Assembly: GCA_021817165.1 (NCBI GenBank)
Contig: JAKAVT010000001.1
Span: 76,236 to 140,235, forward strand
Length of the DNA: 64,000 nucleotides
DNA from: Nanobdellota archaeon
GTDB lineage: Archaea; Nanobdellota; Nanobdellia; Parvarchaeales; Parvarchaeaceae
Direction: 5' to 3'
The notes below the pieces were generated by a model. It was not told where the DNA came from. It was given only the letters and a program-made list of their open reading frames with translations, and did not search any database. The position numbers and the translations under genes were made by a program. Positions 23,190-40,060 of the stretch are shown here, piece after piece. How positions within the stretch are numbered: position 1 is the first letter of the stretch; the number at the start of each line of letters is the position of its first letter.

Positions 23190-23747
23190 TTATATATACG
23201 GGGATGGACCAAAGCTTATTGTCTGCAATATTTTATTTAATGCGGAATCGCTTACATTTACAAACTGCGAAAAAGGGTCACTTATAAATATGGCTGTATA
23301 ATAGCCGCTTGGGCCAAATATAAAAGCCAAGGCGTATGCTATCCTTGCTTTATCTGCCATCACCTTTAAACCATTGTATCCTTTTACTGAAATGTTTTGG
23401 AATGAATAATTAGAACCATTGAATTCACTATAGATTAGGTTATAAAAGTATCCGAAGCTCTCATTCGTCTTGTTTTGAATTACACTTATAATTACGGAGG
23501 TGTTATGATTATAATAAAACCTTATAGAATTATAATACTGCGATATCAATAGGCCCGTTGTGTTAACAAGATAAAAATCGCTGCTGAAATTAAATGACAA
23601 TGTCGGAGACGAAAAAACATGAGACAAATTTTCCTTTTGTAGGAATGTCAATGCAGCCGTGCTTTTTGCAGGCTTGTTAAGCAGCAAAAAGGCTATAATT
23701 ACTGCTGCTATTATAATCAAAATGATGATAACCATTTTCGTTTCCAT
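23190..23747 (-). CDS. Membrane-anchored secreted protein, last gene of the surface operon
   Basis: ATG at 23747 (METKMVIIILIIIAAVIIAFLLL) directly after the stop of the giant gene; beta-rich body with N-glycosylation sequons. Confidence 0.75.
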   Translation of the reverse strand: METKMVIIILIIIAAVIIAFLLLNKPAKSTAALTFLQKENLSHVFSSPTLSFNFSSDFYLVNTTGLLISQYYNSIRFYYNHNTSVIISVIQNKTNESFGYFYNLIYSEFNGSNYSFQNISVKGYNGLKVMADKARIAYALAFIFGPSGYYTAIFISDPFSQFVNVSDSALNKILQTISFGPSPYI

Positions 23748-23748
23748 G

Positions 23749-37624: not shown

Positions 37625-37630
37625 GTCTAT

Positions 37631-40060
37631 TCAACCCCCAGAAAGGTAAGTCCCTCCAAATGAATTTGCGTTGTTTGGATATACGCCGAAAATTAAAGTG
37701 TTATACACATTTATTATGTTATAATCCGTTGTGCTGCCTAACTGCGTTTTTGTAAATTCAAGCGTTACATTTGAATAATCCGTCTCATAATATGAAAGGT
37801 TTGTATTGTATGCTGAAAGAGAAATCATTGGAGAAACCAAAAAATTGTCCAATGATGTTGAGATGCCAACTTGAAGTTTTGGAATGCTTTTTCCAATCAA
37901 AGAAGAGATTAACGATGCGACTGGGAAGTCTATACCAAGATCTTTTTTCAACACAGGCTGTCCGCCTCCTATGAAATTGCCTGCCGACAAGAAACTGTTT
38001 GGCCCAGCTGCGCTATCTGCAGTAAGCTGATTGGGGAAATCAAGGACTGGTACGGAAAAACCGATTAGAGACCCGTTATTTACATAGAAATCAGTATTAT
38101 GCAACATATTGTTTAATACTGACAGCTCAGTTGATGTTAAGCCTATATTTACCATACCTCTGCTAAGGTTTGTCATGTTCACGCAGGACAGGGGTGATCC
38201 GTATTCTGTAACGTTAAATGAAGGATTGTTGAAACCATTTGTATCCATAACAGGGGAACCAAACGAATCTATAAGCATCCTGTATATGCATAAATTTACA
38301 TTATTTTTTTGATTTGAAATCACCAAAGAATCGCCCGGCGGCAATAAAAGCGTTACATTTTGAGTGCTTGACTTTGAGTTGAAAAGATTGTTGAGTTCTG
38401 TTTGCAGGGTATTTGGAAATAAAGCATTGTTTGTTGAGCAGATGGTGTTATAAAGCCCCTGAGATATTGAAAATGAAATAGAACCGTTACCGCTAGGCTG
38501 TATAAGGGTTTTTAGATTCTGTCCGGGTTGTGAAGCAGTAGTGGCAAGCTCGCACATGTCATTCATATCAGTTATCAACGGGCTCGTAACCTGCGTCGGC
38601 CTTCCACTTGATTGTCCGTTCAAGTAAACCTCCCCCCCATATCCTACGAAGTAAGTTCCTAAAGGAAGCACGCTATTTACCTTATCATATACGTTTATAA
38701 GTGTAGTAGCTGCGCCAAGCTCAGACGATAATGACGAAAAGCCTTTGCCGACAGAATTGTAGTTATTTGTATTTAGAGGCTGAGCGGGTAAGCTTAAACA
38801 ACTTGCAGTTCTCGCATAAACTAGAAATGCATTTTGTGCAAGGAAAAAAGGGATCGAAAGCAATGGATCACTGCCGCTTTGCGACAAAGCCACTGAACCA
38901 ATTAATGAGCTTGATGAACTTAAAACTCCTGGAGCAGAAACCCCAGAGACTGGAGTCCCATATGGGTTATTAGAAGTAGCTATATTTGCAGCATTAGACA
39001 ATTCCGATAAAACGTCCTGTTTTATGGCTACCTGTTTGGAAGCAAAAAACGTCAAAGTGTCTTTTCCAAGTCCTGATGGCAGGGAATTCAATGTCTGCTC
39101 GCTGGAAAGCAACTGAGAATATTGCTGCAACACAAAATCTGCAGCGGCGTATTTGAAAGGCATTGGCTCCTGTGTAAGATATGCAGCCGCTATCTGCTGA
39201 CTTATTGAAACTGAAGGACCTGTTAAAGCACCAATCTGCTGGCCATTTATGTAAATTCCCCTGGTAACATATGTATTTAAATTGCTACTACTGGTCCCGA
39301 ACCATAGTTCTACCAAAGGCACGGCTACTAAAGCGGCAGAAAGAGACGCCACAGCCGTTGGGATAAATATGGTTAAACTGGGCAGAGATTCGCGAATGCT
39401 GGAAAGACTGCTTGAAAGCAGAGACTCTGGCGGCAAGTCCTGTACAAGCGGATGTTTTATGTCAGTAATTATTCTATCTTTTATTGATGATTTTAATTTA
39501 GCAGCTAAACTGCTAGCAGGTGCAATTCCTTCGTCTTCTAAATCTCCCGTCAACTCGCCGCTCAAAGCCGCTTCTGATAATTGAGCCTGTTCCTGTAAAA
39601 TTGAATCTACTTCTGTTGTCGCTTCTTCTCTCGTAATCTGTTCGGCTTCTCCGACCCCGTCTTTTACAACGCCTTTAGAGTTGCCTACGCCGCCGAATCC
39701 GTAGCCTACCATGAAACATAGTGCAACGCTGAATACGTTTTTACCTGAATCCAATGTAGGACCATTAGAATATGATACATTGTATATTTTTGAGCCTCCT
39801 GCACAGGTATACGCGGAGATTGAAGGGTCCCAAGTACACAGTGAATTGTTTCCGGCTAACGTAATTGTCATTGAAGATGGCGCACCGTATAGTGAATTTA
39901 TTGAGAAACCTATGTTGTCAGCAAACAACTGCAGAGACCTTGCGCCATTTTGAAAGAACAGGCCCTGAAGATTAGCAAAATACACTCCGACTAAAAGAAA
40001 GGCTGCAGAGAGGATAATAACGCCTATACCTATAACTATCTGTGCCTTTTTAGTCAACAT
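37631..40060 (-). CDS. 809-aa pilin-like surface protein (class III signal peptide) with internal hydrophobic segments
   Basis: MLTKKA|QIVIGIGVIILSAAFLLV; internal VFSVALCFMVGYGFGGVG and LTIFIPTAVASLSAALVAVPLVELWFG. Confidence 0.8.
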   Translation of the reverse strand: MLTKKAQIVIGIGVIILSAAFLLVGVYFANLQGLFFQNGARSLQLFADNIGFSINSLYGAPSSMTITLAGNNSLCTWDPSISAYTCAGGSKIYNVSYSNGPTLDSGKNVFSVALCFMVGYGFGGVGNSKGVVKDGVGEAEQITREEATTEVDSILQEQAQLSEAALSGELTGDLEDEGIAPASSLAAKLKSSIKDRIITDIKHPLVQDLPPESLLSSSLSSIRESLPSLTIFIPTAVASLSAALVAVPLVELWFGTSSSNLNTYVTRGIYINGQQIGALTGPSVSISQQIAAAYLTQEPMPFKYAAADFVLQQYSQLLSSEQTLNSLPSGLGKDTLTFFASKQVAIKQDVLSELSNAANIATSNNPYGTPVSGVSAPGVLSSSSSLIGSVALSQSGSDPLLSIPFFLAQNAFLVYARTASCLSLPAQPLNTNNYNSVGKGFSSLSSELGAATTLINVYDKVNSVLPLGTYFVGYGGEVYLNGQSSGRPTQVTSPLITDMNDMCELATTASQPGQNLKTLIQPSGNGSISFSISQGLYNTICSTNNALFPNTLQTELNNLFNSKSSTQNVTLLLPPGDSLVISNQKNNVNLCIYRMLIDSFGSPVMDTNGFNNPSFNVTEYGSPLSCVNMTNLSRGMVNIGLTSTELSVLNNMLHNTDFYVNNGSLIGFSVPVLDFPNQLTADSAAGPNSFLSAGNFIGGGQPVLKKDLGIDFPVASLISSLIGKSIPKLQVGISTSLDNFLVSPMISLSAYNTNLSYYETDYSNVTLEFTKTQLGSTTDYNIINVYNTLIFGVYPNNANSFGGTYLSGG

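Follow-up and report, generated by a model that had tools for sequence, protein, structure and literature searches.

A gene cassette of Candidatus Parvarchaeum for pilin-like proteins and a giant exported protein that is probably a detached accessory module of an archaeal type IV filament

The window analysed in this study is a stretch of 64,000 nucleotides from a Nanobdellota archaeon (NCBI GenBank assembly GCA_021817165.1, contig JAKAVT010000001.1, positions 76,236 to 140,235 of the forward strand), and it contains a ~17-kb operon of six minus-strand open reading frames (ORFs) that we call genes A, B, C, D, E and p185. We consider it probable that the A-E cassette is the accessory module, minor-pilin-like and adhesin in kind, of an archaeal type IV filament resembling the "system 2" pili, and that it has become detached from the genes of the motor. 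The direct results behind this interpretation are the gene order, its conservation, the class III signal motifs, the presence of assembly machinery in trans, the linkage of the cassette to an ATPase locus in other lineages and the lectin-type folds modelled in D. The six close-packed, same-strand ORFs noticed in a preliminary description of this DNA were reproduced in their coordinates, sizes (809, 268, 186, 1141, 3025 and 185 aa) and close spacing, with intergenic gaps from A to p185 of 6, 1, 0, 3 and 1 nt. The assembly examined comprises 762 kb in 15 contigs (own contigs are labelled C2, C5, C7 and C15) at ~39% GC and 89.8% completeness, and the cassette makes up 2.1% of it; G- and L-numbers below are labels of the relatives' genomes and loci that were compared. 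Database homologues of the cassette carry the labels Candidatus Parvarchaeota or Nanoarchaeota, and because the locus is also present in the ARMAN-4 scaffold GG730038 and the ARMAN-5 scaffold GG745558, we assign the source genus as Candidatus Parvarchaeum (the ARMAN-4/5 group), a tiny acid-mine DPANN archaeon, in agreement with the DPANN origin proposed earlier.

In the synteny comparison that had been recommended, the cassette of other families proved to be physically joined to a locus for a type IV filament, which is firmer evidence than any in the preliminary description. Full-length B homologues are present in three other families of the class. In G039 the cassette (A-E of 674/278/213/824/2537 aa) comes immediately after a tight run of genes of the same orientation, which encodes a T2SSE ATPase of 798 aa, 52% identical to the 746-aa protein on our contig C5, a platform protein of 671 aa, 37% identical to the 705-aa protein on C5, and then three single-anchor membrane proteins, two small pilins that start MKAQGLPINTIV and MLAQELPLASIA, and two more anchored proteins. 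The order in G073, where the genes are again contiguous and co-directional, is ATPase (761 aa), platform (683 aa), proteins of 159, 578 and 471 aa, a PilA-like pilin, proteins of 257 and 219 aa, and then the cassette (A 821, B 274, C 139, D 937 and E 2115 aa), of which B, D and E are homologous to the window proteins by BLAST. Between them these two loci show 52-53% identity to our C5 ATPase and 36-37% to the C5 platform, and their PilA-like pilins share the motif KAQGLP[IL]NTIV. Three more distant loci, those of G036, G057 and G026, which belong to the weakly matched cases described below, have the same architecture: motor, pilins, a series of class-III-like proteins and then one or more giant exported proteins. 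More broadly, a B or B-like gene was found 8-27 kb downstream, on the same strand, in all 12 genomes that have the ATPase orthologue on the same contig.

Reciprocal searches map this ancestral locus, which is contiguous in G039, G073, G036, G057 and G026, to four places in the present genome (Table 1); Parvarchaeum has thus divided it into at least four pieces, and the split is common to the other genera of the family (G097, G213). The counterparts of the first piece, on C7, are transcribed divergently from the ATPase in other families. That the machinery would act in trans, as had been supposed, is borne out: two T2SSE ATPases, T2SSF platforms and a Peptidase_A24 are encoded on other contigs, and no ATPase, platform or A24 peptidase match falls on the window's contig. 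The suggested genome-wide search for PilB, PilC and PibD thus located the type IV assembly machinery whose absence was to have spoken against the proposal. The 746-aa ATPase on C5 has its T2SSE domain at aa 354-590, i.e. a long N-terminal extension, and nine transmembrane helices are predicted in orthologues of the adjacent 705-aa platform (from G073 and three other loci). A motif scan found ~20 plausible class-III-like proteins in the genome besides the cassette, and the genome has small pilin-like genes of the KAQGLPINT and KGQGLPIST types as well as several large proteins with a SQSALEYMMTYGWA signal. With these small pilin-like genes and two ATPase/platform sets, the genome contradicts a reading in which Parvarchaeum would have given up its major pilins and retained only one motor.

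tBLASTn searches and ORF maps were used to compare the loci of nine relatives and of 30 GTDB species. The order A-B-C-D-E is kept in every Parvarchaeum locus that covers it, among 30 loci from 30 species genomes that include ARMAN-4 and ARMAN-5, and it recurs in at least three further families, with G039 and the metagenome contig L026 as examples. Since p185 and the upstream gene p235 are confined to close relatives, the conserved unit is five genes and not six. Gene A was detected in 22 of the 24 species of the genus that were searched; neither A nor B was detected in G019 and G018 (100% and 89% complete), both of which retain ATPases, and in these the module has either been lost or replaced or has diverged beyond detection. 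Pairwise dN/dS, approximate since dS is saturated, was 0.03-0.08 in all five core genes (A 0.07-0.08, B 0.03-0.05, C 0.03-0.07, E 0.06-0.08), so that all five are estimated to be under purifying selection, with A and E gaining amino-acid changes ~3 times faster than B and C. B is the best-conserved marker of the cassette, and its family is lineage-restricted because a B profile searched against 1.84 billion representative proteins gave only 18 matches at E<=1e-3. Pfam and NCBIfam scans of the six proteins found nothing beyond weak matches to DUF2341 in D and to PsbP_2 in p185, the latter protein also matching SecG below the threshold (E 0.011). No significant match came from PDB sequence and profile searches with E, D, C, B and A, and no paralogy was detectable by hhalign between C and B or between A and D. 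A to E are, as judged by these searches, five undescribed, lineage-restricted protein families.

Class III N-termini had been described for three of the proteins, and those of A, C and D are indeed present and conserved in ~30 orthologues and in distant homologues (slashes mark the predicted cleavage sites). A begins MLTKKA/QIVIGIGVIILSAAFLLVGV (KKA/QIVIG) and D begins MLNTKG/QANMIVVLGMVAAT (TKG/QANMIV), each followed by ~20 hydrophobic residues; the motif across orthologues is [KR]x[ATGS]/Q[IV]VIG in A, and [KR]G/Q[AVT]N is conserved in D. C has the canonical start MGKKG/QLTMLDLVLAP, again with ~20 hydrophobic residues following, and the orthologue motif [KR]G/Q[LIV]T..D, in which the acidic residue at +6 is retained even in distant homologues (KKG/AITFFE, KRG/VITPIE, RG/ILTVFE). 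The pilin-like B starts MALVEMMAF with no basic leader, and a distant B homologue (L028) has a KKA/Q leader. Four Cys are conserved in C. In B two Cys are invariant, and a second hydrophobic stretch, rich in Ala, Ser and Gly, spans aa 181-199.

Several points weigh against the interpretation of the cassette as a filament module. The class III signal is absent from B, which has no leader, and from E, which has a plain anchor. Position -1 of A is Thr in several species, and the Asn at +3 of D departs from what we take to be the FlaFind-type pattern. None of the six operon proteins matched PF04021 or another pilin family in Pfam or NCBIfam, a test of little power because the small PilA-like pilins of this genome go unmatched too. 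Nor could a pilin fold be demonstrated for A or D: in the AlphaFold2 (AF2) model of D the N-terminal helices H5-31 and H38-75, which precede beta-strands, have a predicted local distance difference test score (pLDDT) <50, and the model of A (helix H4-58, then strands E63-117, at pLDDT <50 except for the first ~30 residues at 53-74) has a mean pLDDT of 43 and is unusable. The T2SSF score of the 705-aa C5 platform is sub-threshold (16.6 bits), and the protein was unmatched in a further domain scan. Ten of the 12 co-localisations depend on weak similarity (E 1e-4 to 1e-11) to the N-terminal ~100 residues of B. A generic likeness between hydrophobic helices could account for part of it, and one of these ten genomes, G281, is without a giant gene; the ten cases are only supportive. 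Finally, the assignment of one of the two ATPases to the Parvarchaeum module is deduced from synteny elsewhere.

D is a modular pilin-like protein with 18 Cys and 38 sequons. Its AF2 model, built with 19 orthologues aligned, has a mean pLDDT of 62.7, rising to 75-90 in two beta-rich regions. Foldseek searches against the PDB matched it to CBM66 (E 1.3e-4, target template modelling score (TM) 0.58), to galectins (TM 0.6-0.68), to legume lectins and to LNS/LamG domains, within an overall range of E 1e-4 to 1e-2 and target TM 0.56-0.68; the Streptococcus sanguinis pilin PilC (7oa7) is rank 46 of these matches at a probability of 0.75. D is therefore predicted to carry concanavalin-A (ConA)-like lectin folds of a sugar-binding type, and the lectin-like domains of the preliminary description have in this way found a structural model. 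A stretch of D also resembles DUF2341 (PF10102), at 15.1 bits against a gathering cut-off of 23.4; the match lies in the stretch with the invariant alignment columns WW..W..Y..YG, and DUF2341 matches 7 of the 19 D orthologues at E<=0.1 (best E 3.3e-4).

A bindosome has been proposed as the model for the sugar-binding proteins of Sulfolobus that have class III signals, and a bindosome-like role of the cassette would mean that its class-III-signal lectin-domain proteins bind glycans or substrates for uptake, attachment not being their function. [quoted passage not shown] We nevertheless regard nutrient capture as highly improbable, given that no ABC transporter or solute-binding-protein domain occurs in or beside the cassette in any genome inspected, and that proteins of 809-3025 aa with a repeat architecture are unlike binding proteins.

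No other ORF of the assembly comes close to E in length; the protein contains 62 Cys and 94 sequons, and its conservation is highest at aa 500-800 and 2200-2500. The preliminary description had made this giant a pilin-anchored protein, and on N-terminal alignments a class III signal was rejected: its N-terminus is a plain anchor or signal, and the distant homologue in L026 has a cleavable Sec-type signal (AVLA/AE). The repeat domains that had been claimed are present as a distal array of ~six GLPxGxxW repeats, which is the most variable part of the protein. The length of E varies within the genus between 2887 and 3994 aa, and some orthologues add beta-propeller, Laminin_G_3 or PPC domains; the propellers are of the 7-bladed lactonase/YNCE type, unrelated to PilY1, and no PilY1, Neisseria PilC or vWA domain was matched in A-E. 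This genome has repeats of the E type in other proteins with a clear class III signal, one of which is encoded beside the peptidase gene, and elsewhere they occur in proteins with PF18998, thermopsin or DUF2341 domains. The protein next to the A24 peptidase (C15:1050-5228) has 1392 aa, the archetypal class III signal KAQSAVEALMTYGWMIILV and E-like GLPxGxxW repeats, and on the other side of the peptidase lie three class-III-like paralogues of 294-330 aa (C15:7006-9864). Similar modular proteins are encoded at C2:64142-66244 (700 aa) and C7:78087-79715 (542 aa), the latter ending in what, judged by eye, are YNCE-propeller-like repeats.

E, and perhaps D, could instead be the main wall or S-layer-like glycoprotein of the cell, with A-C as its membrane anchors, and the link to pilus genes would then merely reflect that S-layer-like proteins are often found in such loci. 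In favour of such envelope building blocks, E exceeds all other proteins of the genome in size, is heavily enriched in sequons and Cys and is strongly depleted in Lys and Arg; almost all species of the genus retain the cassette; and "S-layer-like proteins" are regular members of archaeal pilus loci (Makarova et al. 2016, PMC4858521). However, the variation of E in size, both in the genus and among the giants elsewhere (~1060-2780 aa in related loci of other families), in its repeats and in lineage-specific propeller or LamG insertions makes it more adhesin-like than lattice-like. No S-layer family was matched in the Pfam and NCBIfam scans, cryo-electron microscopy (cryo-EM) reports no S-layer on ARMAN cells (PMC4110969), and the two genus genomes mentioned above have no detectable A and B. 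An envelope role thus appears quite improbable.

It is also conceivable that A-D form a short, membrane-anchored, type II-secretion-like pseudopilus, served by the same ATPase, that pushes or docks the Sec-exported E through the ~30-nm wall, in which case E would be cargo and not a component of a filament tip, and no long filament would bear the module. The four pilin-like subunits of unequal size recall GspH-I-J-K, the plain anchor or Sec signal of E fits, as does its place, always after four pilin-like genes, and the ARMAN envelope has been described as thick and two-layered with no S-layer (PMC4110969). On the other hand, small PilA-like major pilins, one to three per locus, lie shortly upstream of the cassette in the intact loci of sister families, and this genome keeps such pilins, so a true filament is indicated. 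A secretin-like or wall-spanning component was not seen. To our knowledge, no type II secretion system has been described in archaea. We therefore judge the pseudopilus unlikely.

The N-terminal domain of A (~125 aa, window 39686-40060) is conserved and has three invariant Cys; it is followed by a hypervariable, acidic linker (aa ~126-330, 39071-39685) and a conserved C-terminal domain (37634-39070). We rejected A as a polytopic translocator or fusogen because its hydrophobic segment at aa 229-247 lies beside the hypervariable acidic linker and because no second hydrophobic segment was detected in the G004 and G039 orthologues. The "membrane-inserting domain" of the preliminary description falls in this linker and is not kept as a transmembrane helix in orthologues. 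The A orthologue of metagenome-assembled genome FK2.bin89 (L051:6134-9994, 1286 aa) has a ~450-aa insertion within the C-terminal domain, whose Asp-box-like motifs SSDGASF and SKDFGVSW suggest a BNR or sialidase-type propeller; this insertion means that the C-terminal domain tolerates grafted modules, as expected of an exposed part. A 981-aa, large class-III-like protein encoded at C2:88772-91717 starts with MNKKAQMITIFFSLFLILAIITIISIE and has an N-terminus like that of A, to which it has no BLAST similarity.

All six proteins had been described as rich in Ser, Asn, Thr and Cys with many N-glycosylation sequons, and this holds in part. Measured against the 689 ORFs of the genome, Ser+Asn+Thr places all six within the top ~10%, but only D, E and p185 are rich in sequons (3.1-5.4 per 100 aa, at least the 96th percentile; A, B and C have ~1 per 100 aa), and Cys enrichment is limited to E and D, p185 having none. 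Strong depletion of Lys+Arg is common to the six, with percentiles of 0-4 for the five core proteins and of about 11 for p185. p185 has a plain anchor and no class III signal; of the relatives sampled, tBLASTn detected it in none but the closest (G002), and in other species its position is taken by unrelated small anchored proteins of 190-212 aa; we regard it as a lineage-specific appendix that is not in the conserved core.

Upstream of A, a BRE-like AAAAAGG (40097-40091) is followed by a TATA-like ATAAATAT (40090-40083), centred ~27 nt before the ATG of A at 40060. This predicted promoter would fit a leaderless or short-leader mRNA, and together with the gaps of 0-6 nt it fits a single transcript for the operon. 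The next gene, p235, is kept in close relatives only and is probably outside the module; G004, G006 and G016, which are divergent species of the genus, have the CCA-adding enzyme gene immediately before A. The two tRNA genes that bracket the cassette and its nearest neighbours, and a GC content slightly above that of the flanks (0.38-0.42 against 0.35-0.37; the GC skew of the cassette is positive), hinted at an integrated mobile element. This was rejected because the CCA-adding enzyme and adenosine-kinase-like neighbours occur genus-wide and the cassette is found in other families as well, and the conservation of the neighbourhood throughout the genus excludes a recent insertion. Elsewhere in the window, at 16508-16603 on the plus strand, ARAGORN predicts a tRNA-Phe(GAA) of 96 nt, ~20 nt over the usual length, which probably contains an intron.

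Table 1. Positions of the cassette, its parts and neighbours in the window, and of related genes elsewhere in the assembly (contig label before the colon)
Feature	Position	Strand	Basis
Gene A, 809 aa, class III-like N-terminus	37631-40060	-	ORF, orthologue alignment
Gene B, 268 aa, pilin-like, leaderless (MALVEMMAFLNAGILIVAFALLLVVLS)	36818-37624	-	ORF, alignment
Gene C, 186 aa (from ATG before KKGQ), small pilin-like	36256-36816	-	ORF, alignment
Gene D, 1141 aa, modular pilin-like	32830-36255	-	ORF, alignment, AF2, Foldseek
D beta-sandwich region 1, aa 140-350 (predicted)	35206-35838	-	AF2
D beta-sandwich region 2, aa 650-1020 (predicted)	33196-34308	-	AF2
D DUF2341-like stretch, aa 982-1034	33154-33312	-	Pfam, weak
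Gene E, 3025 aa, giant exported protein	23749-32826	-	ORF, alignment
E distal repeat array, aa ~2466-3025	23752-25431	-	~six Cys-containing F-x-E-x-GLP-x-G-x-x-W repeats
p185, 185 aa, N-terminally anchored, sequon-rich	23190-23747	-	ORF
Promoter-like element upstream of gene A	40083..40097	-	read directly from sequence
p235, cytoplasmic-looking, K+R 14%, without transmembrane helix	40125..40832	-	upstream of A
tRNA-Met	22543-22614	-	brackets cassette and nearest neighbours
tRNA-Asn	40902-40974	-	brackets cassette and nearest neighbours
507-aa T2SSE ATPase and two small TadC-like genes	C7:46300-49761		profile search of genome
746-aa T2SSE ATPase and adjacent 705-aa membrane protein (locus piece 2, ATPase and platform)	C5:42219-46555		profile search of genome
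A24 prepilin peptidase	C15:5437-6270		PF01478, 52.5 bits
Locus piece 1: two small cytoplasmic genes (~130 aa, apparently coiled-coil; ~215 aa)	C7:59365-60342		
Locus piece 3: mid-locus membrane proteins	C2:~5.2-8 kb		
Locus piece 4: cassette A-E	window		

If the cassette is an accessory filament module, its ancestor would have been the 3' end of one long operon of ATPase, platform, small membrane proteins, PilA-like major pilins and A-B-C-D-E, which was broken up in the Parvarchaeaceae, so that the module now stands alone between tRNA genes with its motor on C5 and its peptidase on C15 acting in trans. From the results above we infer peptidase processing, complex formation, a location at the tip or in the filament, and host binding, and these could proceed as follows. 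The A24 peptidase would cut A, C and D after [KR][GA], and the N-terminal helices of the three, with leaderless B, would assemble into a four-subunit complex on the platform. This complex may prime and cap the filament, or make a short pseudopilus. It would display the lectin-like domains of D and recruit the separately exported E, and the distal repeats of E together with the sugar-binding-type folds of D could then touch the glycosylated surface of a partner, such as the Thermoplasmatales hosts, or a substrate.

Host contact is a reasonable though unproven function in view of the cryo-electron tomography (cryo-ET) of ARMAN cells, which reports pili-like, filamentous links that pass through the wall and reach cells of Thermoplasmatales (PMC4110969). 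A bolder proposal, which we think unlikely, is that the module is the ARMAN-side organelle behind these filamentous, "synapse-like" connections to the wall-less Thermoplasmatales and is devoted to a DPANN-specific capture of hosts. If so, a four-subunit stalk would carry the lectin domains of D and E across the ~30-nm wall, the variable repeats of E would recognise host surface glycoproteins and so set the host range, and the protein families of the device would be exclusive to it; once separated from the motor operon, as in Parvarchaeaceae, the module could be regulated or exchanged independently.

The cassette bears on the question of how hosts are recognised and held by DPANN archaea, and no genetic system exists for ARMAN. 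It supplies named candidates for testing, which almost all Parvarchaeum genomes conserve and whose ARMAN-4 and ARMAN-5 copies have been "hypothetical proteins" since 2010. Five undescribed families, A-E, thereby become candidates for pilus tips or adhesins, and D would be, by its predicted folds, an unusually large lectin-bearing pilin-like protein. A 2026 PLoS Genet survey found the pilus genes of DPANN to be scattered and asked whether genome reduction had split a contiguous cluster (PMC13705601). Our comparison answers this for one lineage, with the cluster intact in sister families and in pieces at four places in one Parvarchaeum genome.

Among known systems, system 2 (clade 2 of Makarova, Koonin and Albers 2016, the Haloferax volcanii PilB/PilC type) is described as having an extended ATPase, a single platform gene, pilins with class III signals (SPIII), non-SPIII pilin-like proteins and large adhesin-like proteins (PMC13705601). 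An N-terminally extended ATPase with a single platform gene also appears to be what the C5 locus encodes, its T2SSE domain starting at ~aa 354 of 746. The likeness extends to the large size of that one platform gene, to the SPIII and non-SPIII pilin-like proteins, to membrane proteins and adhesin-like giants, and to a peptidase in trans. The cassette differs in that its families are undescribed and lineage-restricted, that the Parvarchaeum module is detached from its motor, and that its giant, at 3025 aa (up to 3994 aa), is far above the adhesin-like proteins described.

The fimU-pilVWXY1E cluster of Pseudomonas aeruginosa and GspH-I-J-K of the type II secretion system (T2SS) are minor-pilin modules for priming or tip formation. 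With these modules the cassette shares, by analogy only, the logic of four pilin-like genes, a large Sec-exported non-pilin protein and a small gene, and a module that is dispensable for the motor and predicted to prime or cap the filament and carry adhesion. There is neither sequence homology nor a demonstrated fold homology to either of these modules, A and D are very large, the B of the cassette is leaderless, and the E of this genome is without a PilY1-type propeller or vWA domain. In methanococcal pilus loci, DUF2341 marks large proteins that were compared with PilY1 by Makarova et al. 2016 (PMC4858521). These Epd-type loci (arCOG03508) resemble the cassette in their large, class-III-signal or secreted DUF2341 (LamG-like) proteins, which are proposed to be tip adhesins; they differ in belonging to system 1, with two platform genes, whereas the synteny of the cassette points to the other ATPase type, and in that the DUF2341 match of the window D is under the Pfam cut-off. 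The modular pilins of S. sanguinis (PilC with its ConA-like lectin module, PilB with a vWA module; PMC8179133) offer another parallel. D is ~3 times larger than PilC and has at least two beta-sandwich regions, and the shared fold is a very common one with no sequence similarity between the two proteins, yet both combine a class III N-terminus with grafted beta-sandwich lectin modules, an architecture in which the pilin itself would be the adhesin.

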